DNA of 64,000 nt from an uncultured Anaerolineales bacterium (GCA_964526295.1 CAZGKW010000012.1:30643-94642); one strand, 5' to 3'; counted from the stretch's first letter, positions 23,800 through 51,582 are shown. Numbers and translations: made by a program. The notes: generated by a model not told the origin, from the letters alone.

Positions 23800-23803
23800 A
23801 CCA

Positions 23804-26733: not shown

Positions 26734-26736
26734 GGG

Positions 26737-27180: not shown

Positions 27181-27190
27181 GTCCTGCTTT

Positions 27191-28405
27191 TTAGAGCACA
27201 TCGGCAGCCTCCAGAATGGGAAGAATCGCGGCGAACGCGATGAACCCCACCGCGATCGCCAGGAGCACCGTCATGACCGGCTCCAGCAGGGCCGCGAGCC
27301 GGCCCGACGTGATATCCACCTGCGTATCGTAGTCGACGGCGAGGCCCTCGAGCATCGTCTCGAGCCGCCCCGACGCCTGGCCCACCGAGAAGACCTGGAT
27401 CACCAGCGGGGGGAACGCGCGGGTCTTCTCGAGGGCCACCGAGATGTCGCGCCCCGCACAGACGGCCTTTTCGCAGGCCACCAGGGCGTCGCGGAGCACC
27501 CGGTTGTGCACGGTTCGCTGGGCGATGCGGACCGCCCGGACGAACGTGACGTCGCTCTTCAGGAGCGTGGCCATGACCATCGCCATCCGGGCGATGGCCT
27601 GCTTGCGGATCAGCTCGCCGAAGAGCGGCACCTTCAACTCCAGCCGATGCCACGCCCGGCGCCCGCCCTCTGCCCGAAGGACGGCCCCGACCGTGACGAC
27701 CAGGGCCGCGGCCCCGAGCAGCAGGGCCCACCACCCGCCGAGGAGGAAATCGCTGACCGCCTTGACGACCATCGTCGGCATGGGCAGCGTCTTGCCGCTG
27801 TCGAGCAGGACGCCCAGCAGGTTCGGCACGACGTAGGTCATCAGGAAGATGCTGACGGCCAGGCCGACGGCCATCACGATGCCGGGGTACAGGAGGGCCG
27901 AGGCGACGCGGTTCTTCAGGCGGGCCGTCCGCATGCGGAACTGGACCAGCCGCCCGAGGGCCACGTCGAGCGTGCCGGCGTTCTCGCCCACCTCGACGAT
28001 GTTCAGGCACAGCTCGTCGAACAGGGCCGGCTCGAGGCCCATGGCCTCGGCCAGGCCCCCGCCCGCGGCGACGTGGTCGCGAAGCAGCAGGACCGATCGC
28101 TGAAAGCGTCCCTGGTGCTGGCGGAAAATCGTGTCGAGGGCCTCGAGCATGGGGATGTCGGCCGCCAGGAGCGTCGACAGCTCCTGGAGGAACCCCGTGA
28201 CCTTGGCCGTCTGCCGGCCCGTCAGGTAGCGGGCCCACCAGCCTTCGCGCCGGCCGGGCTGCTGCTCGGCGATGTCGCGGACCGAGAGGCCCTGGGCCCG
28301 CAACTGGTCGCGGGCCTGGCGGGGCGAGTCGGCGGCGATCGTGCCGCGCACCAGGCCCCCCCGGCCGTCTCCGTTCCCGCTCGCCGTGTAGACGTAAACC
28401 GCCAT
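27191..28405 (-). CDS. gspF: T2SS/T4P inner-membrane platform protein F.
   Basis: MAVYVYTASG.., two T2SSF repeats, and TM helices. The ATG overlaps the gspE stop (TGATG). Confidence 0.85.
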   Translation of the reverse strand: MAVYVYTASGNGDGRGGLVRGTIAADSPRQARDQLRAQGLSVRDIAEQQPGRREGWWARYLTGRQTAKVTGFLQELSTLLAADIPMLEALDTIFRQHQGRFQRSVLLLRDHVAAGGGLAEAMGLEPALFDELCLNIVEVGENAGTLDVALGRLVQFRMRTARLKNRVASALLYPGIVMAVGLAVSIFLMTYVVPNLLGVLLDSGKTLPMPTMVVKAVSDFLLGGWWALLLGAAALVVTVGAVLRAEGGRRAWHRLELKVPLFGELIRKQAIARMAMVMATLLKSDVTFVRAVRIAQRTVHNRVLRDALVACEKAVCAGRDISVALEKTRAFPPLVIQVFSVGQASGRLETMLEGLAVDYDTQVDITSGRLAALLEPVMTVLLAIAVGFIAFAAILPILEAADVL

Positions 28406-30093: not shown

Positions 30094-30229
30094 AACCAGA
30101 CCTCGAACTGATCTACCCCTTTTCTGGCCGTCCGCGTCGGCCGCGGCTGCCGCGGCGACGAGGCCGGTCCCGCGCCGCCGGGCGGCCGGCCTCGTCGGCG
30201 GGCCGACGGGGCGCGGGTCCCCGGGGCCC
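30094..30229 (-). promoter_or_regulatory. GC-rich inverted repeat in the 136-bp secretin–gspE spacer. It is a candidate intra-operon attenuator, RNA-processing site or internal promoter region.
   Basis: CGACGAGGCCGG..(18 nt)..CCGGCCTCGTCG is a 12-bp perfect stem. This is the only gap larger than 100 bp inside the minus-strand array. Confidence 0.3.
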
Positions 30230-32445
30230 CTACGGGACCTCGACGGGCTCGCTGTCGGGCCAATCGCTCGGCAGCTTCGCGCGTCCGGCGGCCGTGTCCG
30301 AGACCACCTTCAGGTCCTCGAACTTGTCGGCCCGGAGGACCACCGCCCGGATGAACACGAACAGCGTGGTCTCTCGTGTCTGCTTGGAGCGGCTGGAGAA
30401 CAGGTATTCGAGGATGGGGATATTGCCCAGGATGGGGAGCCGGTCGACCGACTCCAGAATGTCCTCCCTCGTCAGGCCGCCCACGACAATCGTGTGGCCG
30501 TCGGGAACCGTCGCCTCGCTGGTCAGCTTGTTCGTCTGGCGCGACGGCGGCAAGGTCTCCGAGACGTCCTCGCCGAAGCTGCTCAGCTCGATCTCGTATT
30601 CAAGCTTCAGGTGATCGCCTTCGCTGATCTGCGGCCGGACGCGAATGGTGGTGCCGGCCGAGACGAAGCCGCCCAGGCTGGTCGTGGCCACGGTGGTGGA
30701 GGCGTTGACGCTGGCGAAGGGCTCCTCGCCCTCGCTGGTCAGCTCGCCTTGGGCGTTGTCGTTGATCAGGACGCTGGGGCGGGCCACGACCTTGGCCCGG
30801 CTGTCGCTTTCGAGGGCCCGGATCACGACGTTGGCGATGTCGGCGCTCAGGAGGGCCCCGTTGAAGCCCAGGCCCGGCCGGAGGGTCAGCATGCCCGTCT
30901 CGGTGTCGACCTCGCTCAGGCCGAACGAGCTGAACGTCAGGACCGTCCCGTCGTCGTCGCCGACGTTCTCGGTGTTCGAGATCTCCACGCCGACCGAGTA
31001 CCCGTCGGTCGTATCGAGCAGCACGACGGTGGCCTCGACGAGGACCTGCGGCCGCCGCACGTCCAGCCGGCTGATCAGCCGCTCGTAGACGCGGTGGAGC
31101 GAAGGCTTCGCGACGACGATGATCGTGTTGGTGGCCTCGTCGGCCATGACGCGTGTGTTCTGGAGGCCGAGGGCGCCTTCGACGACGCCCGGCGAGGCGG
31201 CGCGGCCCTCGCCGGGGCCGGCGAGCGGGTTCGGCCGGGTCTCCATCGCCGGCCGGACCGGCAGGGGATAGGCCACGTCCTGCGGCTCGGCCGTTACCCC
31301 GTCGACGCTCACGCCCGTCAGGCCCGTCTCCCCTTCGATGCTTCGGAGGGTCTCCAGCACGTCGATGGCCTTGGCGTTCTGGAGCTTGTAGAACCGGATG
31401 GGGCTCTGGGAATCCTCCGGCGGCTGGTCGAGCGCCCCCCTGAGGGCCTCGACCTGCTCGTGGACCTCCGGGCCGGCGGTGACGATCAGCAGGTTCGCAT
31501 CGGCGTCGATGGCCGACTTGTACATCCGTTGGGCGGCCACCTCGCCGATCAGCTCACGGACCAGCCGGTCGACCTGTCCGGGCGAGGCCACGCTGAATCG
31601 ATAGATCTCCGTCTTGAAGCCGAGGGGCACGTCGAGCGACTCGATCATGGCGACCGCTTCGGCCACGGCGTCGGGCAGGCCGATGACCACGACCCGGTTC
31701 GTCCGCTCGTCCGCCAGGACGGTCAGGGCCGGCAGGGCCTTGTCGACGGCGCGTCCGGTGGCCTTGGCCCGGGCCTCGATCATCTCGGTCACTTTCTCGG
31801 CCATGGCCTCGGCTTCGAGCTGGCCGACCGGGACGAAGCGGGTGGCCGCCTCGCGGGCCGGGCGGTCCACGACCGCCACGAGGTCCTCGATCCGACCCAT
31901 GTTCGCCGCGTAGTCGGTCACGATAATGAGGCCGTGCTCCTCGACCTTCGTCAGGTCGGCCGAGGGGGCCGACAGGAACGGCCGGACCACCTGGTCGGCC
32001 CGCTGGGGGCTGGTGTGGCGGAGCTCGAAGACGCTTGTCACCGCCAGGCCGGGGGGGGCCCCGGCGGGGGGCCCCGGGCCGGCCGCAATCGAGGTGAGCT
32101 TCTGGGCCCCCTCGATCCGCATCATGCCCGGCACATCGGTCGGGGACATCACGAGGCCCTTCATCCGGAGGATGCTTCCGAGCAGCGTCAGCAGCGAGTC
32201 GGCCGGCACCTTCAGGGGGGCCTTCAGGGTGACGCGTTTGCCGGCGACCTGCTCGTCGTAGAGGAAGTTGATGCCCTGGCGATGGCCGACGTACTCGATG
32301 AGGACCTTGAGCTCCAGGTCCTCGGGGAAGTTGATGCTGACCCAGCCGGCCGGGGCGTTTGTCGGCCCGGCCGCACGGGTCCCGGACGCTGCCAGGCCGA
32401 CGACGGCGACCCAGGCCGCCATCCACACTCGATTCCGCGGATTCA
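30230..32445 (-). CDS. gspD: Outer-membrane secretin (GspD/PilQ family).
   Basis: Signal peptide MNPRNRVWMAAWVAVVGLAASG, N0-like domain, and a C-terminal secretin domain (VPDGHTIVVGGLTREDILESVDRLPILGNIPILEYLFSSRSKQTRETTLFVFIRAVVL). Confidence 0.9.
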
Positions 32446-32492: not shown

Positions 32493-34085
32493 CTAGCGAG
32501 TCCTCTGGGCGACGCGCTCGACCTTCTCCATGTATTCCTGAACGGCCTCGCGTGGCCGGACCTGCTGGGCCCGGCGAAGCAGGGGCAGGGCCTGGGCGTA
32601 CTTGCCCTCCCGGACGAGCAACTGGGCGTGGCGAAGCAGGGCATCCGCCTCAAACTCCTCGATGGCGGCGGCCTGCTGGAAGTAGAAGATCGCCTGGTCG
32701 GGGTCGCCGGTGTCGGCGTGGTACTGGCCGAGGCTGATGAGGGCCTCGCCGTCCAGGGGGTCGAGCTCGATGATCTCCTTCAGGGTCCGGGCGTGCTCCT
32801 CGCTCTTGTCCTCGACCAGGGCCACCCGGGCCTCCAGCTTGAGGAGTTCCTTGCGGGCCTCCTCGCTCAGGCGGTCGCCGTGGGTCCGCTGGATGCTCTC
32901 GACGAGCTGTCGCGTCTGTTCGGTGGCGCCGCGGGAGGCCAGCACCTTGGCGCCGCGGACGGCCCGGTCGGGCTTGTCCGCGGGCTTCTTCTCCATGGCG
33001 CGGATGTAGGACCGGACGGCGAGGTCGAAGAGGTCCTCATTGATGTAGATATCCCCCATCATATTGAGGGCGGCGGCATCGGCCTTGCCGAGACTGTCGG
33101 CGAACTCGTAGTTCTGGACGGCCTTGAGGGGCTCGTCGAGGCCGATGTAGGCGTTGGCCTGGAGCAGCCAGAGGTCGGCGTTGTCGGGGTAGTGCTCGAT
33201 GAGCTGGCCGCACAGGGCGGCGGCCTCGGCGAAACGGCGCTGCTGGAAGAAGCTCTGGGCCAGGCCCATCTTCCAGTCGAGCGTGGCCGGGTCGAGCAGG
33301 ACCGCCATGCGGTAGGCGGACTCGGCCGACAGGGGGTTGCCCACCGAGGCGTAGGCGTAGCCGAGCAGGCCGTACATGATGGCATCGCCGCCGCCCAGCT
33401 CGATGACCTTGGTCAGGGCGGGCAGGGCCTTCTCGAACTCGTTCAGGCGGACGTAGGCGACGCCGAGGTTCCGGTAGGCGCGGCGGAACTTGACGCCCGC
33501 CTTCGCGGCCTTCTCGATGGCCTCCTGGTAGATCGAGGCGGCCCGGTCGAGCCGGTCCCGCTCGAAGTAGATGTTGGCCAGCGTGAAGTCGATCACGGCG
33601 CTGGCCGCCTCGTTGCGGTTCCTCTGGAGCAGGCGGGTGGCCTCATCGCGGTTGTCGGCCCCCATCAGGTCGAGCACCTCCCGCATCAACGCCTGCTCTT
33701 CGGTCGTCAGCTTCGGCTCGACGTCGGTGTCGGCGGCATAGCTCTGGACGAAGTCCACCCGGAACGCCGGGTCGTTCCAGATCTGGAGCTCGACCTGCTC
33801 TCTGCCGGGCATCGGCACCGACGCGCCGGCGAACCGCATCTCGCGTTGCCGGTCGGCCTTCGAAGGGCCGGTCGGCCGCTGGCCGAGCTCTCGCTGCCCG
33901 AGCCCGGTGCAGCCGGCCAGCGTCCCGGCGGCCAGCGCCAGGGCCGCCGCCACCCGCCACGCAAGGACGAACCCGGACGGGGCGAGGGCCTCGCCGCCTC
34001 GACGGCCGCGGGCCGCCGGCGCGGGCCTCTCCGTCAGCGGGCCCTGGCGACCGGGCATTCTCGATATCCGCTCTGGCATGGTCAT
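32493..34085 (-). CDS. Large periplasmic TPR-repeat protein (TtpD-like partner of TonB2-type systems).
   Basis: The ATG overlaps the tonB stop (ATGA). About 10 TPR units (..AYRNLGVAYVRLNEFEKALPALTKVIEL..). Signal/TM FVLAWRVAAALALAAGTLAGCTG. Confidence 0.6.
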   Translation of the reverse strand: MTMPERISRMPGRQGPLTERPAPAARGRRGGEALAPSGFVLAWRVAAALALAAGTLAGCTGLGQRELGQRPTGPSKADRQREMRFAGASVPMPGREQVELQIWNDPAFRVDFVQSYAADTDVEPKLTTEEQALMREVLDLMGADNRDEATRLLQRNRNEAASAVIDFTLANIYFERDRLDRAASIYQEAIEKAAKAGVKFRRAYRNLGVAYVRLNEFEKALPALTKVIELGGGDAIMYGLLGYAYASVGNPLSAESAYRMAVLLDPATLDWKMGLAQSFFQQRRFAEAAALCGQLIEHYPDNADLWLLQANAYIGLDEPLKAVQNYEFADSLGKADAAALNMMGDIYINEDLFDLAVRSYIRAMEKKPADKPDRAVRGAKVLASRGATEQTRQLVESIQRTHGDRLSEEARKELLKLEARVALVEDKSEEHARTLKEIIELDPLDGEALISLGQYHADTGDPDQAIFYFQQAAAIEEFEADALLRHAQLLVREGKYAQALPLLRRAQQVRPREAVQEYMEKVERVAQRTR

Positions 34086-34768
34086 GACCGTTTCGGGAAG
34101 GTGATGGGGACCCGCATGCGTGTCTTGACGGGTTTGCCGCCCCGCTTGCCGGGCTCGAATTTCCATTGCTGCACGGCGCCCAGGGCCGGCTTCTCGAAGG
34201 CCGGGTGGCTCGACGTCTGGACGATCGGGTCCTCCACGCGGCCTCGTTCGTTGACGATGAAGATGACGACCACCTTGCCGGAAGTCTCGTTCAGCATCTT
34301 CCTCACCTGGCTGTTGAGGGTGGGCTGAGGCTGGTAGAGGACGCGGGGCTTCTGGTCGAGGTCGGCCAGGGAGAACAGCTCGTTGAGGTCGCCGGCCCCG
34401 GGGCCCACAGCGAACAGCTTGACGGCGAGCTCGGCGGCACCCAGGTTGCCCTCGCCGAACGCCGTGGGGTTCAGGACCAGCTCGAGCTGCTCGAGCGTCA
34501 GCGGCTGCGTCTTCTCCTCGAACTCCGGCGGCTGCTCCTGCGGCTCGGGCTCCTCCTCGGGCTCCTCTTCGGGAGGCGGCGGGGGCGAGGGCACCTCGCC
34601 GGTGTAAACGTCCCGGACGACCAGGTCGGATTCGGGCGGCCGGCTGATGGTCTGCATGAGCGGCAGCACGAGAAAGAACGCGAGCGTCAGTCCCGCAGCG
34701 CCCAGAAAGACCCACAGGCGGTGCAGGAGCCACCGCAAGACCGACGTTCGTTGTCTCGGTCTGGCCAT
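34082..34768 (-). CDS. tonB: TonB energy transducer.
   Basis: N-terminal TM (LWVFLGAAGLTLAFFLVLPL) and a Pro/Glu-rich spacer (PPPPPEEEPEEEPEPQEQPPEFEE). C-terminal TonB_C (..VVVIFIVNERGRVEDPIVQTSSHPAFEKPALGAVQQWKFEPGKRGGKPV). Confidence 0.85.
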   Translation of the reverse strand: MARPRQRTSVLRWLLHRLWVFLGAAGLTLAFFLVLPLMQTISRPPESDLVVRDVYTGEVPSPPPPPEEEPEEEPEPQEQPPEFEEKTQPLTLEQLELVLNPTAFGEGNLGAAELAVKLFAVGPGAGDLNELFSLADLDQKPRVLYQPQPTLNSQVRKMLNETSGKVVVIFIVNERGRVEDPIVQTSSHPAFEKPALGAVQQWKFEPGKRGGKPVKTRMRVPITFPKRS

Positions 34769-34778
34769 GGGCCGACGC

Positions 34779-35195
34779 TCAACTTTCCGTTCGCCGCGTG
34801 GCGACGCTGACCTTCGTCGCCCCGCCCAGCTTGGCCTGGTCGATGACGCGGACCAGGAGGCCGGACTGGACGGCCGGATCGGCCTGTACGATGACCGGCA
34901 TGTCGCGGTTGGCGAGCGTGTTCTCGACGAGCAACCGGACGCCGCCGATGGGGACTCGTCTGCCCTCGCAAAGCACCTCGCCCTGCTGAGTCATTTCGAT
35001 CAGGATGCTGGTTTTCTCGTCGCTTCGGGACGCACCCCCGGGCTGCGGCTTGTCGACCTGCACGCCGGACTCGTCCACGAACGCCGTCGTCACGATGAAG
35101 AAGATCAGGAGGATGAAGACGCAGTCCATGAGGGGAGAGATATCGACCGCGCCCTCGGTGCCCTCTTCGTCGGCGGTTTCTCGAAAACGTCTCAC
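34779..35195 (-). CDS. exbD: ExbD/TolR biopolymer transport protein.
   Basis: AVDISPLMDCVFILLIFFIVTTAFV is the ExbD signature. Confidence 0.85.
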   Translation of the reverse strand: MRRFRETADEEGTEGAVDISPLMDCVFILLIFFIVTTAFVDESGVQVDKPQPGGASRSDEKTSILIEMTQQGEVLCEGRRVPIGGVRLLVENTLANRDMPVIVQADPAVQSGLLVRVIDQAKLGGATKVSVATRRTES

Positions 35196-35216
35196 GTCGT
35201 CTCCTCGCGTCAGGCT

Positions 35217-35630
35217 TCAGCCCTGACCTGGCCGCGTCGCGATGCTGACTTTCGTGGCCTCGGCCAGCTTGGCCTCCTCGAGCACCCGGACCAGCACGCC
35301 GGAATGGGCGGCGGCGTCGGCCTGGATGATCACGGGGACCTGCTCCTTCCGGATGAGCCGCTTCACGAGCGGCTGGACCCCGCTGACGCCGATCTCGCGT
35401 CCCGCGTAGACCACCTCGCCCTTGGCGGTGACCGCGATGAGAATGCTGTTCTTCTCGAGGCGGACGCCGGACGCGGCCTGGGGCCGGTCGACCTCCACCC
35501 CGGTCTCCTCCACGAACGTCGTCGTCACGATGAAGAAGATCAGGAGGATGAAGACGCAGTCGAGCAAGGGAGAGATGTCGATCCCGCCCTCGCTGCTCTC
35601 ATCCATCGCCGCTTCGCGGAAGCGTCCCAT
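35217..35630 (-). CDS. exbD: ExbD/TolR paralog.
   Basis: GIDISPLLDCVFILLIFFIVTTTFV, a tandem duplicate of the downstream exbD. Confidence 0.85.
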   Translation of the reverse strand: MGRFREAAMDESSEGGIDISPLLDCVFILLIFFIVTTTFVEETGVEVDRPQAASGVRLEKNSILIAVTAKGEVVYAGREIGVSGVQPLVKRLIRKEQVPVIIQADAAAHSGVLVRVLEEAKLAEATKVSIATRPGQG

Positions 35631-35656
35631 GGGACTCCCCGTCGGTCACCTCGTTC

Positions 35657-35986
35657 TCAGGGGGCCGGCCGCTTTCCCGGCCCCTCGGCGCCTCGTCTCG
35701 CCCCTCCGGAGCGGATGGGCGGCCCCCAGCCATCACCGCCCGTGAGGGTATTGAACAGGGCATCGAGGTCGTCAAAGTCCAGGGGCCCGGTCTCGACCGG
35801 CCCAGGCGGGCGCCGCCGGCCCGGGTCGATGGTGCGCACCTCGAAGTCCGGCCCGGGCGGCTTCACGAGGGCCTTGGTCAGCAGCGGCGCGAGGAGGAAC
35901 AAGGCCGTCAGGCCCATCGCCCCCGCCACGACCGAGACGTTGTGCAGAAGCCGCCTTCTCGATGGACCCGCCTGGTGCGGTCCCAT
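35657..35986 (-). CDS. Small single-TM, Pro/Gly-rich protein inserted between exbB and exbD (unknown function).
   Basis: GGAGG RBS 6 nt upstream of the ATG. TM VSVVAGAMGLTALFLLAPLL. About 109 aa. Nested inside a longer GC-artifact ORF. Confidence 0.4.
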   Translation of the reverse strand: MGPHQAGPSRRRLLHNVSVVAGAMGLTALFLLAPLLTKALVKPPGPDFEVRTIDPGRRRPPGPVETGPLDFDDLDALFNTLTGGDGWGPPIRSGGARRGAEGPGKRPAP

Positions 35987-36036
35987 GGTTCGACCTCCAG
36001 GTCTTGCCGCCTCGGGCGGCCGCACGCGCCTCCGAT

Positions 36037-36675
36037 TCACGCCACCGCTCTGTGCCCGCGCGAATGCCCATGAAGCTTCTGTGCACAGACGGTCTCGAGG
36101 TGGGTCAGGAACGCCTTGTACCGTTCGTGCTTTCGGGTCAACTGGTACTGGAAGAAAAGGCCCGGCAAGGCGATGACCAGGCCCGTCTCGGTGGTGACCA
36201 GGGCCTCGGAGATGCCCTCGGCCACCAGGCCCATGGTCTTGTCGCCGCCGGAACCGGTGGCCAGGGCGGAGAAGGTGGCCAGCATCCCGGTGACGGTGCC
36301 CAGCAGGCCGAGAAGCGGGGCCCCGCCGACGCAGATCCGCATGACGCGGAGGTCCCGCTCGAACGGGGCAATCTCGGTGGTGCGAAGCTCCTCGAACACG
36401 GCGGCGCTTTCGCGGAGCGACCTGCCGCCCACCGCAAAGTCGAGCAGCTCGCCGATCGGGCCCTGCCGCTCCTCGGGATGGTCGATCCAGCGGCGCCAGG
36501 TCTTCTCCGGCACGGACTGGAACCCCTTCTCCTGGAGCTTCAGATGGACGTGCATCCCCATGGCGAACATGACGAGGGCCATCGCGGCGATGCCGATCAT
36601 GGCCCACCCCCCGGAGAGCCAGATGGCGTAGGCCTGGTGCCAGAGGGCCCTGAGATGTTCGAGGATCACGTCCAT
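36037..36675 (-). CDS. exbB: MotA/TolQ/ExbB proton channel (short form).
   Basis: Three TM helices and the MotA_ExbB core (ICVGGAPLLGLLGTVTGMLATFSALATGSGGDKTMGLVAEGISEALVTTETGLVIALPGLFF). An alternative start lies at 36720. Confidence 0.85.
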   Translation of the reverse strand: MDVILEHLRALWHQAYAIWLSGGWAMIGIAAMALVMFAMGMHVHLKLQEKGFQSVPEKTWRRWIDHPEERQGPIGELLDFAVGGRSLRESAAVFEELRTTEIAPFERDLRVMRICVGGAPLLGLLGTVTGMLATFSALATGSGGDKTMGLVAEGISEALVTTETGLVIALPGLFFQYQLTRKHERYKAFLTHLETVCAQKLHGHSRGHRAVA

Positions 36676-36760
36676 GTCGGTTATGCCTTTCCGGCCCCGC
36701 CCTTCGGGGCCGCGCCTCATCCGGTCAGCGGCGGCCGCGACACCGCCGGTCTCCGGTCGC

Positions 36761-38317
36761 CTATTCCGCGGTTCCGGGCCGGCTGTCGGACCAGCCCATC
36801 ATCTCCGGCTCGAGGGCCACGTCGTCGGCCAGCTCGTCGCCGGTCTCGTACTCGTGGCGGGGCCCCAGCGGGGTCTTGCTGACCTGGTTCGCGAGCGCGA
36901 CGGCGGCCTTCTCCATCTGGCTGACCAGACCGCGGGCCTTGCGCGAGAGGAACGCGTAGAGCAGCAGCGACGGGATGGCCACGATCAGGCCGAACTCGGT
37001 GGTGATCAGGGCCTCCGAGATGCCGCCCGAGAGGGTCTTCACGTCGCCTGAGCCGAACACCGTGATCAGCTTGAAGGTGTTGATGATGCCCGTGACGGTC
37101 CCGAGCAGCCCCAGCAGCGGGGCGGCCGAGGCGCTGATGGCGATGAACGGCAGGAGCCGGTTGAGCTTCAACCGCGTCGTCAACACCTTCTCGTACATGA
37201 CCTCTTCGATCAGCTCGCGGGGCTCGCGGAGCTGTTCGACGCCGGCGGCGAGCATCTGGCCGATCGGGCCCTTGATCGCCCGGACCTTCTCCCTGGCCTC
37301 CTGCTCGTCGCGGCGGGCGATGGCGTCGAGCAGCGCCCGGATGCGTTTCTGGGACGGCTTGCGGACCAGGCCCAGCCGCACCCACTTGTACAGGGCCACC
37401 AGGAAGGCCATTGCCGCCATGGCCAGAATGGGATACATGACCGGGCCGCCCTTGCTGATGTGCTCGACGAGCGACTCCTCGGTCTCCTCGATCTTGTGGG
37501 CATTGCCCAGCGTGGGGTCGAGGGGGAAGCGGCCCTCGCCCTGCTTGACGACCTGGGCGGCCGCCTCCGCGTCTTCGGGGTCGCCGAAGGCGATGATGGC
37601 CGGCTCGAGCGACCCGAGGCGTTGCTCGGCGGTCCCGACGTCCTGGCCGTCACTGGACCGGAACAGGGCGGCCGGGCCGACGAGAACGAAGGTCCCCTGC
37701 TTGACCACGCCGCCGGGGTCAACGGCCGTGCCGTCGAATCGGGCGCCGCTCAAGGCCTGGTGCAGCCGCTCGAGGGAGGCCTGGACCAGGGCGACCTGGG
37801 CCTCGTAGATCTCCTGCTGCGAGAGGTTGCTGTTGCCCGGGGCGTCGGAGGCGACCTGGAGGGTCTCGTCGTAGCGCTGGATTTCGGCGATGTGGAGGCG
37901 GGACTCGAAGTTCCGGACGTATTCCCCGAGCAGGTTCGACAGGTACGTCGCTTCCGCCTGGCGCGACTTGATCTCGCTCTGAAGGTTCGCCAAGTCGAAC
38001 GTCCGCCTGTCGAGCGTCCCGGCCGTCTGCTGAAAGTCCAGCCGGACTTTGACCAGCTCGGCTTCGAGCTCGCGGAGCTTCTTGTTGAGAGGGACCTGCT
38101 CCTTCTCGATCCGGTCGCGGAGGGCATCGAGCTCCGCGAGACTGTCCTTGAGGCGGTGCTGGATGCTGTCGGCGGCGGCGTTGAAGGCGTTCCCCTGGGG
38201 TGCCTCGGGAGGCGCGTCGGGCCCCGCCTCGGGCTGGGCGTTCGGTTCCTGGGCACCCGCCCCGGCCGGGCCGGCCAGGAGGAGGACCAGGACGAGCAGG
38301 GTCGTCGCCGTCTTCAT
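36761..38317 (-). CDS. Long-form MotA/TolQ/ExbB protein with a ~300 aa N-terminal periplasmic coiled-coil domain (TtpC-like).
   Basis: Signal peptide MKTATTLLVLVLLLAGPAGAGA and a long coiled coil. C-terminal MotA/ExbB core (LPFIAISASAAPLLGLLGTVTGIINTFKLITVFGSGDVKTLSGGISEALITTEFGLIVAIPSLLLY). Confidence 0.75.
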   Translation of the reverse strand: MKTATTLLVLVLLLAGPAGAGAQEPNAQPEAGPDAPPEAPQGNAFNAAADSIQHRLKDSLAELDALRDRIEKEQVPLNKKLRELEAELVKVRLDFQQTAGTLDRRTFDLANLQSEIKSRQAEATYLSNLLGEYVRNFESRLHIAEIQRYDETLQVASDAPGNSNLSQQEIYEAQVALVQASLERLHQALSGARFDGTAVDPGGVVKQGTFVLVGPAALFRSSDGQDVGTAEQRLGSLEPAIIAFGDPEDAEAAAQVVKQGEGRFPLDPTLGNAHKIEETEESLVEHISKGGPVMYPILAMAAMAFLVALYKWVRLGLVRKPSQKRIRALLDAIARRDEQEAREKVRAIKGPIGQMLAAGVEQLREPRELIEEVMYEKVLTTRLKLNRLLPFIAISASAAPLLGLLGTVTGIINTFKLITVFGSGDVKTLSGGISEALITTEFGLIVAIPSLLLYAFLSRKARGLVSQMEKAAVALANQVSKTPLGPRHEYETGDELADDVALEPEMMGWSDSRPGTAE

Positions 38318-38335
38318 GCCGGCCTCCCGCGCCGG

Positions 38336-39193
38336 TTACTGGACCTTGATCGGCAGCCTGACAAAGGATGCCACCTGTTCGTTCTTGAGGATGGCGACGG
38401 CCTGGGCGATCTGGGGAGCGGCCTCGTTGGCGGGGTCCCAAATCCACCCCTGGTCGGTGGCCCGACCGACGCCGGCCACGGTTCCGTTGGCCCCGACGTA
38501 GTAGGCCTGCCCGATGCCGACGTAAAGCGTCGTCACTTCCACGCGGGTCCCATCGGGGAGGGTCCGGAGCTCGCTGGTGAGGCTGATGCCGCGGTTGAAC
38601 TTGTTGACCTCGTTCAGGATGCCCACGACGTTCTGGAAGCGTTCGCCGAGGGACAGCTTGGTGTCCTGGGGGTCGTCGGGGAAACGCTGGCTCAGGGGCC
38701 TGACGCGTTCACGGACGGGGTCGGGCAGCCGCTTGAGCAGCTCCCTGGTCCGGGCCTCCATGGCGGCGATGCGTTGGGCGAGCGCGGCGGAGGCGGCCTT
38801 GAGCTTCTCGCTCTGCTCGACGAGCCCGGTCCGTTTCTCCTCGGCCTCGGCGATGCTCTCCTCGGCGGCGGCGATCTTCTCGCGGAGCGACCCGATCTCG
38901 CGCTGCACGAGGTCGATCCGCGCGTTGAGCATCTCGCGGGCCAGGGCCCAGTCGCTCCGCATCTTGGAGATGGTGCGGCGGGTATCGACCCATCGCTCGA
39001 GCGCTTCGCGGGTGGTGACCACCCCGTCCCGGGCGTCGATCGGCCCGGCCGGTCCGGCCGCCCCCGCGACGAGACAGGTGACCGAGGCCGCCAGCAGCGC
39101 GCCGGCGATTGCGGCATACCCACCGATGCGGCGTCGCGCCGGCCGTTTCGCCGCCGGGTGCCGACCGGTCCTCTCTTTTCGCGTCATTCTCAC
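38336..39193 (-). CDS. DUF3450-like periplasmic coiled-coil protein (TtpB-like component of TonB2-type clusters).
   Basis: N-terminal TM and a long coiled coil (LVQREIGSLREKIAAAEESIAEAEEKRTGLVEQSEKLKAASAALAQRIAAMEARTRELLKRL). C-terminal ..RVEVTTLYVGIGQAYYVGANGT.. It sits immediately upstream of the TtpC-like gene. Confidence 0.5.
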   Translation of the reverse strand: MRMTRKERTGRHPAAKRPARRRIGGYAAIAGALLAASVTCLVAGAAGPAGPIDARDGVVTTREALERWVDTRRTISKMRSDWALAREMLNARIDLVQREIGSLREKIAAAEESIAEAEEKRTGLVEQSEKLKAASAALAQRIAAMEARTRELLKRLPDPVRERVRPLSQRFPDDPQDTKLSLGERFQNVVGILNEVNKFNRGISLTSELRTLPDGTRVEVTTLYVGIGQAYYVGANGTVAGVGRATDQGWIWDPANEAAPQIAQAVAILKNEQVASFVRLPIKVQ

Positions 39194-39241: not shown

Positions 39242-42200
39242 TCACCAGGAGAAGTGGGCGCTGAGGCCCACCGAGTAATCGATGCCCTTGTGAAAGGAGG
39301 TCTTGGTCACGTCTTCTCCGATGAAGTCGGACCGGTAGACGGTCTCGATCTCCGGGTCGGTGAGGTTCTTGGCCTTGAACGACAGCGTGAGGTAGTCGCC
39401 GAGCTTCTGGGACACGCTGACGTTGAGCGTGCCGAACTCGGTCGCGTAGACGCTGGGCACGAAGCGCCCGCTGGCCTGCCCGGCCCCGGCGACCAGGGTG
39501 TCGCCGCGGACCGTGTAGAAGACCGCGAATCGCGTCCCGGTGGGCCCCAAGTCGTAGGTCATAAAGAGATTATAGATATACTCGGGAGCATTTGTCATGT
39601 CGCGGGTCAGCACGGGGACGCCCAGGAGCTCCTCGAGCTCGGCCGCCTCGTCCGGGGGCAGGATGACCTCCGAGTCGATGAACGTGGCGTTGGCCCCGAC
39701 CGTCAGGCCGTTGAGCTCGCGTACGAAGTGGCCCAGGTGCTGCCGGGCCTCGACCTCGACCCCCCTCAACCTGCCGCGGGTGAAGTTGCGGGGGGTCGTG
39801 TAGGTGAACAGGCTGGCCACCCGCTGGACGTTCTCGATGGGATCGACGACTCGCTTGTCGAAGTAAGAGACCGAGAACAGCCCCCCCGCGTAGGGCTCGT
39901 AGTCGAACCGCAGGTCGTAGTTCTCCAGGGCGCTCATCCGCAGGCCCGGGAACCCGATGAAGATGTCGCCCCCGAGAAACTCCTGCTGGAGGATCGGCGA
40001 GAGCTCCCGGAACGTCTGGCGGGCCACCGTCTCGGTGTACGAGCCCCGGAGCGTGATCTCCTTGAGCGGCGCGAAGACGAAGCCGATCGCGGGCAGCACG
40101 TCGCCCTGCTGAAACGCCACATCCGGCCCGTCCGGGAACAGGCCCGGGGTCAGCTTGATCCCGACGCTCGCCCCCGGCGGGAACCACGTCGCGTCCTCTT
40201 CGGCGGTGTTGACGATGGTCAGCTCGGTTTCCTCGTACCGGGCCCCGCCGATCACCTTCAGCATCGAGAACAGGGGGAAGTCCACCATCCAGTACCAGGC
40301 CGAGATGTGCTGGTCCCCCCGGTAGTCGACGTCCACGAAGGGGGGGCCGTCCTTGATGGTGGGGACGCCGCCCTGCTCCTCGAGCAGGTCCGGATAGGCG
40401 GCGCTGTAGGACGCCTCGAACGGGGCGTCCCGGAGGCGCGGGGCCTGCGGGTCGCCCGTGTCTCGCAGGTTGCTGAAGCTGTTCTGGTCGAACGTCCGGG
40501 CCACCTCGTCCTCGAACACGCCGAACCTGACGTATCCCTCGTCACCGGTCCACTGTCGGAAGGGGAACTTGACGTTGATGGCGTGCTGCTCGCTCTCTTC
40601 CTCGATTTCCTTCCAGATCCGCTGGATGTTGCCCAACCGGAAGTTGGCCCCCGGCTTGACCGGGAAGTGCTCCGACCTGGTGACGAACGGGGGAACGAAC
40701 GGCGGGAACCCCGGATTGAACGACGGGGCGACCCACCCGCCGCCGAACTGCCGCTTGTCCGGCTGAAACATGTCGGCCGTGCTTCGGGCGACGAACCAGT
40801 CCACCTCCGGGGACAGGGCCCTGAACACGTCCACCTTCCCCACCTCGGGGACGGGCAGCCTGTGGTGCCCGTGGAGCTGAAGCGTCTCGGTGGTCCGCTC
40901 GGTGTAGGCCAGCGTCTCGTTCCGGCGATAGGCCGCCAGGGCCTTGCTCTGGGTGGAGTTGCCCGGGTGGCTCGGATCGTCCGGGTCGTACACCGGGACG
41001 TCGCCGAACGCCGGAAAGAAGAACTCCTTGCCCCGGGTGTCTTCGGCAAGCGTCGCGACGTCCTCGGCGATACGGGTATAGAGATAGACGAGGTTGAGCG
41101 AGTGGTTCTCGGTCTCGACGCCGACGGCCCCGAGGGCCCCCCACTGGACCTCCTCCTTGGCCTGTGTGACGTCGTAGAGCTTCGTGAAGAGATCGCCCCG
41201 GGCGGGCGGGTTGTACGGGTCGTCCGGGTCCCAATCGCCCTGGACGGTTCCCTGGGTGGTCTGCGGCATCAGCCGCTGCTCGCCGGCCTGTTCCTGAAGC
41301 TGATACCGGTCGTCGATCCCGTCCTCGTAGTACGAGGCATCCCGCTTATAGAAGAGGCTGGTATAGCCGCCGACCGTCAGGCCGGTCTTGAAGGCCCGCC
41401 TCCCGCCGGCGGCAAACGACCAGTCATATTCCCGCGGCGCCTCGTCGAGGGAGGTGCCCAGGGCCCCGCCGAACTCGCCGGGCGCCGGTATCGGCACATC
41501 CTGCCGGGCCCACGTCGGCACCCCGCCGCCCCGGTACGTGAGGAACTCGTCCCCGGCATCCCTGACCTGGGTGTTGAAGCTGTAGCCCCCGCCGAACTTC
41601 AGGATGGTCTCGTCCGGAATGCCCTTCAGAACGATGTTGACGGCGCCGCCGGAGGCGTCGCCCTGCTGGTCCGGCGTGAAGGTCTTGCTGACCAGGAGGG
41701 CCTCGATCACCGCGGCCGGAAACTGGTCGAGCTGAACGGCCCGCTTCTCGGCGTCGGCGGTCGGCAGCCGACACCCGTTCATCTGCGAGTTCACGTACCG
41801 GTCCGGCAGGCCCCGGATCACCGCGAACTTGCCCTCCTGGACGCTGGCCCCCGCCACCAGCTGGACGGCGTCGGCCGCATCGCTGGCCCCGGCGTCTTTC
41901 ATCAGCTCGCTGCTGATCCCGGTGACGAACGCCGCTTCCCCGCGGCGAAGCTCGAGGACCTGGAGCTCCGTCCCGGCCTCGAACGAGATGTCCTGGACGA
42001 CGAACTCGTCCATCTCGGTGAAGTCGCCCCCCATCCAGGCGTTGGCCTCGACGATCTGCCCCGGCGGCACCACCACGTCGCCCCGGACCTGCCGGGTGAA
42101 GCCCGGCTTCGAGAAGATCAGCGTGTACGTGCCCGGCTCGACCTGAGGAAAGACGTAGTTGCCCTCCGGAGCGGTGGTGGCTTTCTGGCTGGTCTCGACG

Positions 42201-42346
42201 ATGGCAACCCGGACCTCCCCCAGTGGCGTGTTAAACGCCTTGTCGTACACCACGCCGCGCAGGGAGCCCGCCTGCTGGGCCGAAGCGGTCGCCGCCAGAC
42301 AGAGCAACGCCCCCAGAGCAGCCCATCCCGCCGATAGCCGTGTCAC
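39242..42346 (-). CDS. TonB-dependent outer-membrane receptor with an N-terminal carboxypeptidase-regulatory-like domain.
   Basis: Signal peptide VTRLSAGWAALGALLCLAATASA and a CarbopepD_reg-like domain (GSLRGVVYD..GNYVFPQVEPGTYTLIFSKPGF). Plug domain (..AVIRGLPDRYVNSQMNGCRLP..) and a ~800 aa barrel ending ..SAHFSW. The GTG start overlaps the upstream TGA. It is nested in a 1331-aa GC-artifact ORF. Confidence 0.8.
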   Translation of the reverse strand: MTRLSAGWAALGALLCLAATASAQQAGSLRGVVYDKAFNTPLGEVRVAIVETSQKATTAPEGNYVFPQVEPGTYTLIFSKPGFTRQVRGDVVVPPGQIVEANAWMGGDFTEMDEFVVQDISFEAGTELQVLELRRGEAAFVTGISSELMKDAGASDAADAVQLVAGASVQEGKFAVIRGLPDRYVNSQMNGCRLPTADAEKRAVQLDQFPAAVIEALLVSKTFTPDQQGDASGGAVNIVLKGIPDETILKFGGGYSFNTQVRDAGDEFLTYRGGGVPTWARQDVPIPAPGEFGGALGTSLDEAPREYDWSFAAGGRRAFKTGLTVGGYTSLFYKRDASYYEDGIDDRYQLQEQAGEQRLMPQTTQGTVQGDWDPDDPYNPPARGDLFTKLYDVTQAKEEVQWGALGAVGVETENHSLNLVYLYTRIAEDVATLAEDTRGKEFFFPAFGDVPVYDPDDPSHPGNSTQSKALAAYRRNETLAYTERTTETLQLHGHHRLPVPEVGKVDVFRALSPEVDWFVARSTADMFQPDKRQFGGGWVAPSFNPGFPPFVPPFVTRSEHFPVKPGANFRLGNIQRIWKEIEEESEQHAINVKFPFRQWTGDEGYVRFGVFEDEVARTFDQNSFSNLRDTGDPQAPRLRDAPFEASYSAAYPDLLEEQGGVPTIKDGPPFVDVDYRGDQHISAWYWMVDFPLFSMLKVIGGARYEETELTIVNTAEEDATWFPPGASVGIKLTPGLFPDGPDVAFQQGDVLPAIGFVFAPLKEITLRGSYTETVARQTFRELSPILQQEFLGGDIFIGFPGLRMSALENYDLRFDYEPYAGGLFSVSYFDKRVVDPIENVQRVASLFTYTTPRNFTRGRLRGVEVEARQHLGHFVRELNGLTVGANATFIDSEVILPPDEAAELEELLGVPVLTRDMTNAPEYIYNLFMTYDLGPTGTRFAVFYTVRGDTLVAGAGQASGRFVPSVYATEFGTLNVSVSQKLGDYLTLSFKAKNLTDPEIETVYRSDFIGEDVTKTSFHKGIDYSVGLSAHFSW

Positions 42347-43596
42347 CACGGTGGCCCCAATCCCTCGAGAATCTCGCGCAAACGGGTCTCGAACTCGGCG
42401 TCCGGCTCCACGCCGTCCAGCGCCATCGAACGGCAGGCGGCGGAGAGGTCCTCGGCCCGAGGCCGGGCATTGGGGTTCTCGGCCCCGACTTCCACGGCCT
42501 TCCGGTAGACCTCCAGCGCCCGTTCCGTGGCCCCCATCGCCCGGTACGCCTCCGCCACCGACAGGAGCACGCTTGCCCGGTCGGTCGTCAGGACCTTCTT
42601 CCGCTCCGGCTCGAACCTCGCGAGCGCGGCCCCCACGTCGGCGCGGGCCCGGTCTTCGTCGCCGGCCCGGAACCGAAGCCCCGCCACGCGGGCACGCACC
42701 GGGATGCCGTACTGAGGCGGCCAGGAGACGCTTTCCACCCGCTCCTCGGTCTCCTCCACCAGCGCCAGGGCATGGGGCCGGTCCTCGTGTGCCAGGGCCG
42801 CGCCCACCAACGCCTCGAAGACGTCCACCTGGACCTGGCCCGGCATGCGGACGAGGCCGGCCCGGACCTTCTCCTCCACCAGCGATCGGCGCTGCGGGTC
42901 GTCGTAGAAGCGGTCGTAGAGCTCGACGTATGCCGCCAGCGCATTCCGGATGACATCGAAGTGGCCGGATGCGATGGCCGCGTCCAGCCGTTCCACCTGC
43001 TGCTGGAAGGCCTCGTCGTCGGCCAGCATCGCCCGGATGCGATCGACCTTGCCCTGTTCGGCCGGGGGCGCGCCGGCCTCGAGCCGCCGGGCCTCCTCGT
43101 CCCGGCCGAGCCAGGCCTGCGTCTGGGCCATCTTGACCCGTATGCGGCCCTGGCGCCAGTCCTGCTCGTCCTCGGCGAGCTTGGCGGCCACCTCCAGGAA
43201 ACGGCCCGCCTCGTCGGTGTGCCCGTTGCGAGCGCAATAGAGCGCGAGGTCGGCATAGGCCAAGCCCCGGCGCCAGTTGACGATCTGCTTCGTGTAGTCG
43301 AGGGCCCGCTCGGGCTGCCCGAGTTCCAGACAGGCCCTCACGACCTCCTCCTGCTGCCGGGAACGGTCCTTGACGTGCGGCTGGACCGGGAGCGCCGTCG
43401 CCGCCTCAAACGCCAGGTCGAGCAGTTCCGTGCGGTACGGCTCGACCGGCTTGTCGGCCATCGGCTCGGAGGCCGGGGCGGTCTCGGACGGCACCGGCCC
43501 TTCCTGGCCGGGCCCGTCGGCGGACTGAGGGGCGCAGCCGCCCACCCAGAGCACACCGCCCACCAGCAGGAGAAACGTTCGCAGCGCAGTCTGCAT
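42343..43596 (-). CDS. Helical-repeat (TPR-like) lipoprotein.
   Basis: Lipobox LLLVGGVLWVGGC. Alpha-helical repeats. The stop overlaps the TBDR start. Confidence 0.5.
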   Translation of the reverse strand: MQTALRTFLLLVGGVLWVGGCAPQSADGPGQEGPVPSETAPASEPMADKPVEPYRTELLDLAFEAATALPVQPHVKDRSRQQEEVVRACLELGQPERALDYTKQIVNWRRGLAYADLALYCARNGHTDEAGRFLEVAAKLAEDEQDWRQGRIRVKMAQTQAWLGRDEEARRLEAGAPPAEQGKVDRIRAMLADDEAFQQQVERLDAAIASGHFDVIRNALAAYVELYDRFYDDPQRRSLVEEKVRAGLVRMPGQVQVDVFEALVGAALAHEDRPHALALVEETEERVESVSWPPQYGIPVRARVAGLRFRAGDEDRARADVGAALARFEPERKKVLTTDRASVLLSVAEAYRAMGATERALEVYRKAVEVGAENPNARPRAEDLSAACRSMALDGVEPDAEFETRLREILEGLGPPW

Positions 43597-43685: not shown

Positions 43686-45614
43686 CTACAGAGGAAGGAC
43701 CCGGTAGAGCTTCGTCCCGTCGAAGCCCGCGAGGTCCTGGATGCAGATCTCGCCGCCGGTGCCCTCGACCACCTTGAAGGGGGCCCAGTCCGTGCCGTCG
43801 TCCGAGACCTCAATCTGGTACCACGTGCCGTCCTCGGTGTCGAAGCAGACCACGGTGAACTTCAGCTCCAGCTCCTGGGGCGGGGCGGCCACAACGTCGC
43901 CGTCCGGAGCGCCGAAGAACCCGAAGGCGTCGGCCGCCGTCCAACCCCGGGCCCAGTTGTGGTCCGGGCTGAACGCCCCGCGGAAAGGCGTGTTCGTGAA
44001 GAACCCGCAGACCGGCTCGTCGTCGATGTTGAACGTTGCCGCGCTGACGGCGTCGTTGGCGGCCCGCGGGTCGATGGTGACGACCGGGAACATGATTTTC
44101 CCGCCGCGGGTCACGCCGGGGTCCCCGTCGCCGTCGGCGTCGCTGAAGTCGCGGGTCAGGGCCGCGATGGGCATGTTGTCGTCCGGGCTGCCCACGTTGA
44201 ACGAGGCGACCACGTTGTTCTTGGCCGGGTTGCTGCCGCCGCCCACCGTCACGCCGCGGGCGTCCGACTCGGTGTAGGCCCCGGCGGCCAGGTTGCGGAA
44301 GAACACGCTGTCGACGATCTCGGCGAGCTTGCCGGAGGTCTGGGCCGCGTAGATCGCCATCAGTTCGGGCTGGGTGAAGCCGGGACCGATGGGGGGGACC
44401 ATGTTCGCGTGACCGCCCGTCAGGACGTTGGCCGGGTTGTAGACCTCGCTCCAGTCGGTCGTCCAGGTGGCGGCCCACGACAGGGTGCCGTTATGGCCGT
44501 ACCCGTTGGCCCCGTCGCCGTCGATGTTGTCGAACTGGACCAGCCCGGCGCCCAGGTCCATCCAGATACACTTACGGTACTGGATGCGGCAGTTGTCGCG
44601 CCAAGCGGTCCCGCCGTCGCCGTCGCCGGGCTGGCCGACGACGGTGGCGTTATAGATGACGGCGGTCGTGCACGGCTGGAAATCGGAGTCCTCGGCCCCG
44701 TCATGCTCGAAGCAGTTGTCGCCGACACCGGAGCCCTGGCTGTCGTCGACGCTGTAGCCCTGGACGATGAAGATGAACTGGGCCTTGCCTCGCCAGCCCT
44801 GGTCCAGGTCGAAGGTGTCGTCGCCGATGTTCCAGATGGTGCAGTACTTCAGCTCGACCGTGCCGCCCCAGATCTCGATGCCGTCGTCGACGTTGTTCAT
44901 GACGTCGACGTGGTTGATCTCGGTCTCGCGGCCGACGCCGCCGAGCGAGAAGCCGTTCAGCTCGTCGTTGAGGCCGATGACCCGTCCGCCGTAGCGGAGC
45001 GACAGATACTGGATGGTGCCGCTGTTGTCATCGTCCATGTTACCGCCGTACCGCGTGTCGGGGTCGCCGACGAACCCGGGGACCAGGCCTTCCATGTCGG
45101 CCTCGTTGCCGGCGGCGGGATAGGGCACGTTGCCGGGGACGGCGTCCTCGGCGATGTAGCCCTTGCCCATGATGGCGATGCTGCCCCACTCGTTGGCGGC
45201 CTCACGCCAGGTGCCGGTCTTGGGGTCGCCGACGGTGTCGATGACGCCGGCGTTGACGACGCTGCCGGTCCACGTCGCGACGTCCTGGTTGGTGGTGAAG
45301 ATGACCGGCTCCTGGGCGGTGCCGAGGACGTAAAGGCGGCTGCCGCGGGTGATGGCGAGGCTGCCCGCCCCGCCGCCCGTCGCCGTGCTGGCCACGAGCG
45401 TGCCGGCCTCGATGGTCAGCGTGGCCCCGTTCTTCACGACGGTCGAGGCGGTCAGGTCGTAGACGTTGCGGACGCCTGCGGTCTCCTTGGTCCAGACCTC
45501 GGAGACGGTGATGTCACCCGACTTCGGGATGATGTTGACGGCCGCGCCGGCCGTCCCGGCCATGGCGAAACCGATCGCCAGAACCAGCAGAGCTGCTTTT
45601 CTGAAGGCTTTCAT
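43686..45614 (-). CDS. Large secreted protein of unknown function (beta-rich, Asp/Gly-rich; possible beta-helix).
   Basis: Signal peptide MKAFRKAALLVLAIGFAMAGTAGAA. No recognisable catalytic motif. It is the first gene upstream of the lipoprotein/TBDR/TonB block. Confidence 0.4.
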   Translation of the reverse strand: MKAFRKAALLVLAIGFAMAGTAGAAVNIIPKSGDITVSEVWTKETAGVRNVYDLTASTVVKNGATLTIEAGTLVASTATGGGAGSLAITRGSRLYVLGTAQEPVIFTTNQDVATWTGSVVNAGVIDTVGDPKTGTWREAANEWGSIAIMGKGYIAEDAVPGNVPYPAAGNEADMEGLVPGFVGDPDTRYGGNMDDDNSGTIQYLSLRYGGRVIGLNDELNGFSLGGVGRETEINHVDVMNNVDDGIEIWGGTVELKYCTIWNIGDDTFDLDQGWRGKAQFIFIVQGYSVDDSQGSGVGDNCFEHDGAEDSDFQPCTTAVIYNATVVGQPGDGDGGTAWRDNCRIQYRKCIWMDLGAGLVQFDNIDGDGANGYGHNGTLSWAATWTTDWSEVYNPANVLTGGHANMVPPIGPGFTQPELMAIYAAQTSGKLAEIVDSVFFRNLAAGAYTESDARGVTVGGGSNPAKNNVVASFNVGSPDDNMPIAALTRDFSDADGDGDPGVTRGGKIMFPVVTIDPRAANDAVSAATFNIDDEPVCGFFTNTPFRGAFSPDHNWARGWTAADAFGFFGAPDGDVVAAPPQELELKFTVVCFDTEDGTWYQIEVSDDGTDWAPFKVVEGTGGEICIQDLAGFDGTKLYRVLPL

Positions 45615-49865: not shown

Positions 49866-50219
49866 CCGTGGTCGCCGCTCCCGCCGGGCGCGGCACTCCT
49901 TACATACCCTCTCCCTTGACGGGAGAGGGAACGGGTGAGGGTGTCGGCGGCCTTCGGCCGCCGCCTGCCGTCACCCCGAGCGGAGCGAAGCGCACTCAAG
50001 GGGTCTCGCCGTGCGTTGCCGTTCCAGGGAGTGCGGTGGCAGGGCCCGCGCCAGCCGGCGTCGACACCGCTTTCGTTTCGCGCACGACAGGGAAAGCGGC
50101 CCCTCCGGTCTCCGGTCCTGCGCCTCGTGCCCGCAGCATTGCCCCGGAACATCGTCCTGACAGGACGTTCCGGATGCCGCCGCCCCCGAGCCGCCAGGAC
50201 GTCTCGCGAAACCGTCAAG

Positions 50220-51561: not shown

Positions 51562-51582
51562 AACAGAGCCCCTTCCGTAAGG

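Follow-up and report, generated by a model that had tools for sequence, protein, structure and literature searches.

A Ttp-type Ton motor in Planctomycetota, Verrucomicrobiota, and Sumerlaeota, and a variant with two ExbD proteins and a probable partial copy of tonB

Introduction

The described systems that are closest to the one we report here are the TonB2 and TonB3 systems of Vibrio vulnificus. The TonB2 operon of this bacterium has the order ttpB2-ttpC2-exbB2-exbD2-tonB2-ttpD2, where TtpB2 is a DUF3450 protein, and the TonB3 operon begins with the gene for an outer-membrane receptor, followed by ttpB3-ttpC3-exbB3-exbD3-tonB3-ttpD3 (PMC6957404). TtpB2, TtpC2, and TtpD2 are each required for TonB2-dependent transport (PMC6957404). 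For TonB3, no function has yet been established (PMC10734418). Here we consider a gene cluster with the same six types of proteins, from a 64,000-nt stretch of DNA from an uncultured Anaerolineales bacterium (GCA_964526295.1 CAZGKW010000012.1:30643-94642). We call this whole stretch the window, and all coordinates are window positions. An initial annotation, made from the sequence alone, had described the cluster as the Vibrio TonB2 architecture in a genome of PVC type (Planctomycetes, Verrucomicrobia, Chlamydiae), with two ExbD paralogs and an additional small transmembrane protein of 109 amino acids (aa) that had no obvious counterpart.

Parts of this arrangement have been seen elsewhere. 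Two exbD genes in tandem have been described in Xanthomonas, Flavobacterium, and Sphingobium, and the second ExbD of Xanthomonas has a separable role in signalling and in the induction of pectate lyase (PMC3551730, PMC8599685). According to another report, proteins similar to ExbB can have DUF3450 appended at their N terminus (PMC12505986). And in the published genome of a Verrucomicrobiota isolate, a locus of this kind is already listed as a TonB transport system (PMC13274419).

Our reading of the cluster, which we consider probable as a whole, has two parts: the window encodes a motor of the Vibrio TonB2/TonB3 (Ttp) type that is driven by the proton motive force and serves the adjacent receptor, and it also encodes a partial copy of tonB that is confined to this lineage. 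If so, this is a known kind of system in a new phylum, with minor variations.

Results

The eight open reading frames (ORFs) of the energiser all lie on the minus strand, between 32493 and 39193. In the direction of transcription, they encode a DUF3450 protein that resembles TtpB (38336..39193; PF11932, E = 8e-32, profile positions 14-240 of 241); a long MotA/ExbB protein of 518 aa that resembles TtpC (36761..38317; PF01618, E = 1e-29); a short ExbB of 227 aa (36037..36720; PF01618, E = 6e-21); the 109-aa protein (35657..35986); ExbD1 (35217..35630; PF02472, E = 2e-25); ExbD2, a divergent paralogue (34779..35195; PF02472, E = 4e-23); TonB, with a transmembrane anchor, a Pro/Glu-rich linker, and a TonB_C domain (34082..34768; PF03544, E = 1e-15, and above the cutoff of TIGR01352); and a tetratricopeptide repeat (TPR) protein that resembles TtpD (32493..34085; matches to many TPR families). 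Every one of these except the 109-aa ORF is supported by hidden Markov models (HMMs) from Pfam, so the order and the domains given by the initial annotation are confirmed. As it also described, the stop codon of tonB overlaps the start codon of the TPR gene in the sequence ATGA (ATG at 34085-34083 and TGA at 34084-34082). Its description of the long MotA/ExbB as TtpC-like holds as well, with the channel domain confined to residues 349-469.

This arrangement is common among PVC bacteria. When we searched species-representative genomes with the long ExbB as the query, we obtained 80 loci (46-68% identity), which are from metagenome-assembled genomes of Planctomycetota, Verrucomicrobiota, and Sumerlaeota. 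A scan of metagenomes with the ExbB query gave 80 further loci. Throughout the related loci from both scans, the order is DUF3450, long ExbB, ExbB, ExbD, TonB, TPR. The DUF3450 protein is present in all of them, and of the 80 loci from genomes, 71 end with the TPR gene. The architecture is thus nothing special to the genome in the window, as it is the norm across more than 140 PVC loci. Homologues also occur in culturable bacteria, for example in Sedimentisphaera and Anaerobaca.

The same six types of proteins, in the same order, make up the TonB2 and TonB3 systems of Vibrio and of Teredinibacter turnerae. In the window, the first gene of the energiser encodes the DUF3450 protein, as ttpB does; an ExbB/MotA protein with a long N-terminal extension precedes the normal exbB, as in ttpC; and exbB, exbD, and tonB are followed by a TPR protein as the last gene, as in ttpD. 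Judged by the shared Pfam families and the gene order, the assignment to the Ttp-type Ton systems is supported. As in Vibrio TonB3, a gene for an outer-membrane receptor heads the operon (and does so in 42 related loci). The comparison with Vibrio in the initial annotation therefore stands for the domains, their order, and the PVC affinity of the closest loci, but the receptor-first layout fits TonB3 better than the TonB2 system that was named. There are other differences. The Vibrio systems belong to Gammaproteobacteria; the window has two extra conserved genes upstream, along with the second ExbD and the 109-aa protein; and its receptor appears to be of a carbohydrate-scavenging type and not of a siderophore type.

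These upstream genes extend the module beyond the energiser, to about 45614, and all three of them are on the minus strand. The receptor (39242..42346) has a signal peptide, an N-terminal CarboxypepD_reg domain (PF13620), a plug (PF07715), and a barrel (PF00593), and its gene is 48 nt upstream of the gene for the DUF3450 protein. Its best match in NCBIfam is TIGR01782 (TonB-Xanth-Caul), at 200 bits, which is below the cutoff of 310 bits. The GTG start codon of the receptor overlaps the stop codon of the next gene upstream (GTGA), which encodes a predicted lipoprotein of 417 aa (42343..43596) with the lipobox …VGGC and weak matches to TPR families in Pfam. Its AlphaFold2 model is an all-alpha TPR-like solenoid (predicted local distance difference test, or pLDDT, of 92). 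We considered whether this might be a SusD-like protein, but Foldseek matched the model to generic solenoids of TPR or pentatricopeptide type and to no SusD, which rules this out. The first gene of the module encodes an exported protein of 642 aa (43686..45614), with a signal peptide in its translation and no match in our local copy of Pfam. AlphaFold2 predicts a right-handed beta-helix (pLDDT 83, predicted template modelling score 0.82). The Foldseek matches of this model are weak (best E = 3e-3), and all of them are polysaccharide lyases, epimerases, or tailspikes and phage depolymerases. The protein has over 1,700 homologues, all of which have the precomputed family PF28492 and are annotated as "hypothetical" or "exported protein."

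The linkage of these genes is also conserved. The receptor is linked to the energiser in 53 loci: it lies upstream of the DUF3450 gene in 42 and downstream of the TPR gene in the other 11, which are of Verrucomicrobia type. Of 53 loci with room for it, 39 have the lipoprotein gene immediately before that of the receptor, and a homologue of the beta-helix protein adjoins the receptor in 59 related loci. About 40 loci of Planctomycetota type keep the full order of beta-helix protein, TPR lipoprotein, receptor, and energiser. In loci of Verrucomicrobia type, the beta-helix homologue comes just after the displaced receptor in 4 of the 11. The energiser in the window does not stand alone but forms the distal portion of a nine-gene module that is conserved in PVC bacteria.

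We examined the subunits of the motor for the residues that matter in Escherichia coli. In a gap-free alignment of the long ExbB to 5sv0_B, T407, E435, and T440 correspond to T148, E176, and T181 of E. coli ExbB. The short ExbB retains the equivalents of these residues in the motifs GLLGTVTG and GISEALVTTE. Because both proteins keep all three, both are probably active channel subunits. The best NCBIfam matches are to TolQ for both ExbB-type proteins and to TolR for both ExbD proteins, all of them below the cutoff. The true start of the short ExbB may be an internal ATG at about 36675; proteins from related loci align only from residue 10-16 onward. Similarly, a possible internal start in the TPR gene would give the product a canonical signal ending in …LAGC, so it is probably a lipoprotein.

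The accessory regions are less familiar. The DUF3450 protein has a signal peptide or transmembrane anchor, a coiled coil, and a C-terminal domain, and we found no solved structure of any relative. In the long ExbB, a signal peptide precedes an N-terminal periplasmic region of roughly 300 aa, whose only Pfam matches are weak and of coiled-coil type. BLASTP finds no similarity between this region and the DUF3450 protein. In a comparison of the region with the DUF3450 family by hhalign, there is a colinear but weak alignment (E = 0.017, probability 2.7%), which fits the report of DUF3450 as an appendage of ExbB-like proteins.

The long ExbB varies among the related loci, which we refer to by L numbers. 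In about 25 of them, including L001, L004, L007, L010, L014, L017, L022, L025, L035, L041, and L053, it has an additional cytoplasmic extension of about 150 aa at its C terminus that resembles a CBS pair (consensus …AGGIM…V…TV.EAI..IR…IF(V/I)VD..GK…G.(V/I)…LL…). The protein in the window lacks this extension, whose resemblance to CBS domains suggests that nucleotides or ions control the stator in those lineages. In Sumerlaeota (L059, L060, L071, and L079), the match to the long ExbB is split into query residues 1-350 and 351-500, with about 200 nt in between, which suggests an insertion between the periplasmic and channel domains.

The window does encode two ExbD paralogs, as annotated. They are 58% identical to each other, and both have full-length matches to PF02472 and keep the transmembrane aspartate that is equivalent to D25 of E. 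coli, within …SPL(L/M)DCVF…. ExbD1 is 72-79% identical to the single ExbDs of related loci. In a neighbour-joining tree, it clusters with the single ExbDs and with L003_b, while ExbD2 clusters with L003_a, which is the extra ExbD in L003. By these sequence comparisons, ExbD1 is the canonical orthologue of the single ExbD. Two tandem ExbDs are a minority variant: we found them in 7 of 80 loci from genomes and in 4 of 66 from metagenomes, or about 11 of 143 loci (around 8%). The D2-like gene precedes the D1-like gene in L003 and L034, and the order is reversed in the window and in L042. Given both orders and the scattered occurrence, the duplication is sporadic and was rearranged. At the DNA level, exbD1 and exbD2 (compared over 35231-35629 and 34793-35194, respectively) are 79-81% identical across the 5' 156 nt and the 3' 106 nt, and they have diverged in the middle. 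Either constraint on the transmembrane and C-terminal segments or gene conversion over part of the gene could account for this pattern.

Other operons with tandem exbD genes are tonB-exbB-exbD1-exbD2 of Xanthomonas campestris, tonB1-exbB1-exbD1-exbD2 of Sphingobium SYK-6, and that of Flavobacterium psychrophilum. Like these systems, the one in the window has its tandem exbD genes within a single Ton operon, and both proteins have the essential transmembrane aspartate. Unlike the window, the systems of Xanthomonas, Sphingobium, and Flavobacterium have another gene order and lack the Ttp accessory genes. In the PVC loci, compared to those operons, the order of the paralogues varies and the duplication is sporadic.

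The 109-aa protein has one hydrophobic helix and no match in Pfam or NCBIfam. By its position, it indeed has no counterpart in the Vibrio systems, but the initial annotation overlooked that it is a paralogue of the N-terminal part of TonB. In BLASTP, residues 3-56 align with residues 4-57 of the TonB in the window (39% identity over 54 aa, E = 2e-8). We built a TonB-family profile from 75 syntenic TonBs and the TonB in the window, and positions 11-66 of this profile match residues 11-66 of the 109-aa protein at 23 bits. In other words, the match is colinear and covers a membrane anchor of TonB type. A weak second piece aligns profile positions 86-106 with residues 66-87. None of 2,000 shuffles that preserved composition and the hydrophobic segment reached 23 bits; the maximum was 8.8. 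When all six-frame ORFs of the window were scanned with the profile, the only match besides tonB itself was the 109-aa ORF, and tblastn with the 109-aa sequence matched only the N termini of TonBs, from about 35 other loci. The protein retains 11 of the 18 strongly conserved columns of the TonB anchor, and it has L34A and Q38K at near-invariant positions of the anchor motif F-L-x-L-P-L-M-Q. It ends at about profile position 106, which leaves no room for a TonB_C domain, and it has none, so it is not a TonB in the functional sense. We will call it the TonB stub.

The stub was not found anywhere else. About 143 syntenic loci include both exbB and exbD, and in none of them is there an ORF like it between these genes. 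Only three of these loci have more than about 230 nt between exbB and exbD, a distance that is about 407 nt in the window. We checked the three loci with wide gaps: L002 has no ORF there, L026 encodes an unrelated exported protein of 251 aa, and L065 has an unrelated ORF of 150 aa. An exhaustive HMMER search of 1.84e9 representative proteins, a word-index search of 5.8e9 clusters, and a tblastn scan of metagenomes each recovered only the 109-aa ORF itself. The initial annotation had itself named absence from syntenic loci as a result that would count against its view of the small ORF as an extra component, and this view is not upheld.

The origin of the stub is harder to reconstruct. It is 39% identical to its own TonB and 30-50% identical to the TonBs of other loci. 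Because it is about equally far from both, the duplication must be old or fast evolving, or the stub came from another tonB. Simple scenarios of tandem duplication fail to yield the order of stub, ExbD1, ExbD2, and TonB. We found no remnants of the TonB C terminus or of ExbD in the other frames around the stub, and no DNA repeat connects it to the 5' end of tonB. Gene annotations in both NCBI and Logan include it, and the contig is present in the Logan runs SRR7048218 and SRR7048227. A GGAGG sequence stands 7 nt before its ATG. The gap to exbB is 50 nt and that to exbD1 is 26 nt, and an alternative GTG start at 36040 would overlap the stop codon of exbB (GTGA). Its GC content by codon position is gene-like over residues 15-75 (0.9-1.0 at third positions and about 0.5 at second positions), and this periodicity is weak in the last 35 residues or so. 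Two near-invariant anchor residues have changed and the tail is weakly coding, so constraint on the stub is apparently relaxed. Our best reading of these comparisons is that the stub is a lineage-specific partial duplicate of tonB, as opposed to a component of the system. It may still be translated, but most likely the motor can do without it or it is already in decay.

Downstream of the TPR gene, after 47 nt, there is a complete type II secretion operon (gspD-E-F-G and several pseudopilins; about 23800-32445, minus strand). Of the 58 related loci with enough flanking sequence, just 7 (L003, L020, L033, L037, L043, L051, and L057) have a gene for GspD after that for the TPR protein, so a link to type II secretion is not general. 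Just upstream of the module, a protein of 215 aa (45673-46320, minus strand) has a PEP-CTERM sorting motif at its C terminus; weak homologues are found in the equivalent place only in L003 and L057. A scan for promoters and terminators found nothing beyond what is expected from shuffled sequence, except for one sigma-70-like match within the 3' end of the receptor gene (ATGACA-18-TATAAT, 11 of 12 positions, 39598-39569, minus strand), although this phylum may not use that consensus. This site is about 380 nt upstream of the start of the DUF3450 gene, where it might serve the energiser genes as an internal promoter. Overall, the GC content of the window is about 70%, with a dip to 0.62 at 50001-52000, versus 0.68-0.74 elsewhere.

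Discussion

If the cluster in the window works like its Vibrio counterparts, then the long and short ExbB proteins would form one or more pentameric proton channels around a dimer of ExbD, by analogy to the structures from E. coli and to the genetics of Vibrio. In this genome, the dimer may be a heterodimer of ExbD1 and ExbD2. With two subunits of ExbB type and two of ExbD type, there could be two dedicated stators, or a single mixed stator that contains the heterodimer. The channel would energise TonB, whose C-terminal domain would pull on the plug of the receptor. We expect that the periplasmic DUF3450 protein and the TPR lipoprotein are obligatory accessory or scaffold subunits, like TtpB and TtpD of V. 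vulnificus, and that the motor is dedicated to the receptor encoded just upstream. The stub would be a copy of the start codon, the membrane anchor, and the beginning of the linker of tonB, and only this lineage would have acquired it, by insertion between exbB and exbD1. The channel residues, the aspartate of ExbD, and the TonB_C domain are shared with ExbB-ExbD-TonB of E. coli (5sv0, 6tyi). Compared to the E. coli system, the one in the window has two subunits of ExbB type (one of which has the large periplasmic domain), three extra accessory genes of a type that is obligatory elsewhere, and a dedicated receptor.

We considered two other explanations for the stub. It might be a functional subunit that docks at the TonB site of the stator, either as a competitor or regulator of the occupancy of that site by TonB or as a partner of the extra ExbD. 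The colinear start, the ideally spaced GGAGG, the short distances to its neighbours, the codon-position bias, the conserved anchor columns, and the gene calls in both records would all fit, and the stub does share its locus with a rare second ExbD. Nevertheless, no search found a homologue; none of the other 11 or so loci with two ExbDs has it; L34 and Q38 are substituted; codon periodicity is weak over its last 35 residues or so; and in a genome with 70% GC, long open frames persist without selection. We think that a functional subunit is unlikely, and we are more doubtful still about a specific version in which this anchor-only TonB competes with or complements TonB at the ExbB/TtpC-ExbD stator and is possibly tied to the second ExbD. 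If that were true, then the stub would be a genetically encoded brake or adaptor on the Ton motor, that is, a regulator made from the motor's own anchor. At the other extreme, the ORF might not derive from tonB at all and might have arisen by chance in the GC-rich DNA between genes. Orphan status, the absence of family matches, and the many long spurious ORFs in the window might suggest this. But the colinear profile match that no shuffle approached, the tblastn matches that are limited to TonB N termini, and the fact that no other non-TonB ORF in six frames matched the profile effectively refute it, and we give it almost no credence.

The cluster as a whole might instead be a Tol-like motor or an export motor, which could move proteins or polymers through an Oar-like receptor or act together with the adjacent type II secretion system. 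The matches to TolQ and TolR, although below cutoff, point in this direction, as does the layout of the receptor, with its CarboxypepD_reg domain, plug, and barrel; from this layout, we presume that it resembles Oar. The complete gspD-E-F-G operon is nearby on the same strand, as it is in a few of the related loci. One report on Myxococcus xanthus describes Oar as needed for the secretion of PopC (PMC6434023). Yet the cluster encodes a genuine TonB_C domain and a receptor with a plug, and its architecture equals that of the Ttp systems of Vibrio, which have been shown to serve uptake. Also, the genes that define Tol-Pal by their place beside tolQ-tolR (tolA, tolB, and pal) are absent from the cluster, no TolB or Pal/OmpA domains are encoded in the flanks, and 51 of 58 related loci are not adjacent to type II secretion genes. 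So an export or Tol-like motor seems quite improbable to us.

We therefore prefer a Ttp-type uptake motor that is accompanied by a partial copy of tonB, but several observations weigh against parts of it. The nearest relatives that we sampled are 64-68% identical in the long ExbB, and a second metagenome scan for closer relatives, with the ExbB query, found nothing above 76% identity, so the absence of the stub elsewhere is not informative about congeneric genomes. The intact start codon, good Shine-Dalgarno sequence, tight spacing, and strong third-position periodicity over residues 15-75 imply that the stub is, or recently was, translated and constrained. And the argument for a glycan as the cargo relies on fold matches with E values of 3e-3 or higher and on an NCBIfam match below its threshold.

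With that said, because the receptor is of Xanthomonas/Caulobacter type and is linked to an exported beta-helix protein, a glycan is more likely to be the cargo than a siderophore is. The upstream genes are reminiscent of the SusC/SusD loci of Bacteroidetes, in which a receptor with a CarboxypepD_reg domain is likewise coupled to a lipoprotein of all-alpha, TPR-like fold and to an exported protein that may act on glycans. On the other hand, the lipoprotein in the window matches no SusD, the gene order is reversed, and the Ton motor is encoded in cis. We view the resemblance as an analogy and not as membership.

Both the second ExbD and the TonB stub are small variations at the level of the lineage, and the stub matters only if it is expressed. 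What we gain is mainly the extended module of nine genes and a set of loci for comparison, and not the small ORF. The six-gene motor of Ttp type has been studied so far only in Vibrio and in a few marine Gammaproteobacteria, and it is standard in many Planctomycetota, Verrucomicrobiota, and Sumerlaeota. In these PVC phyla, the motor comes as a fixed unit with a single receptor and a predicted beta-helix protein that is exported. The more than 140 loci form a comparative set for the roles of TtpB, TtpC, and TtpD, for whether the long and short ExbBs make up one stator or two, and for the cargo of the receptor.

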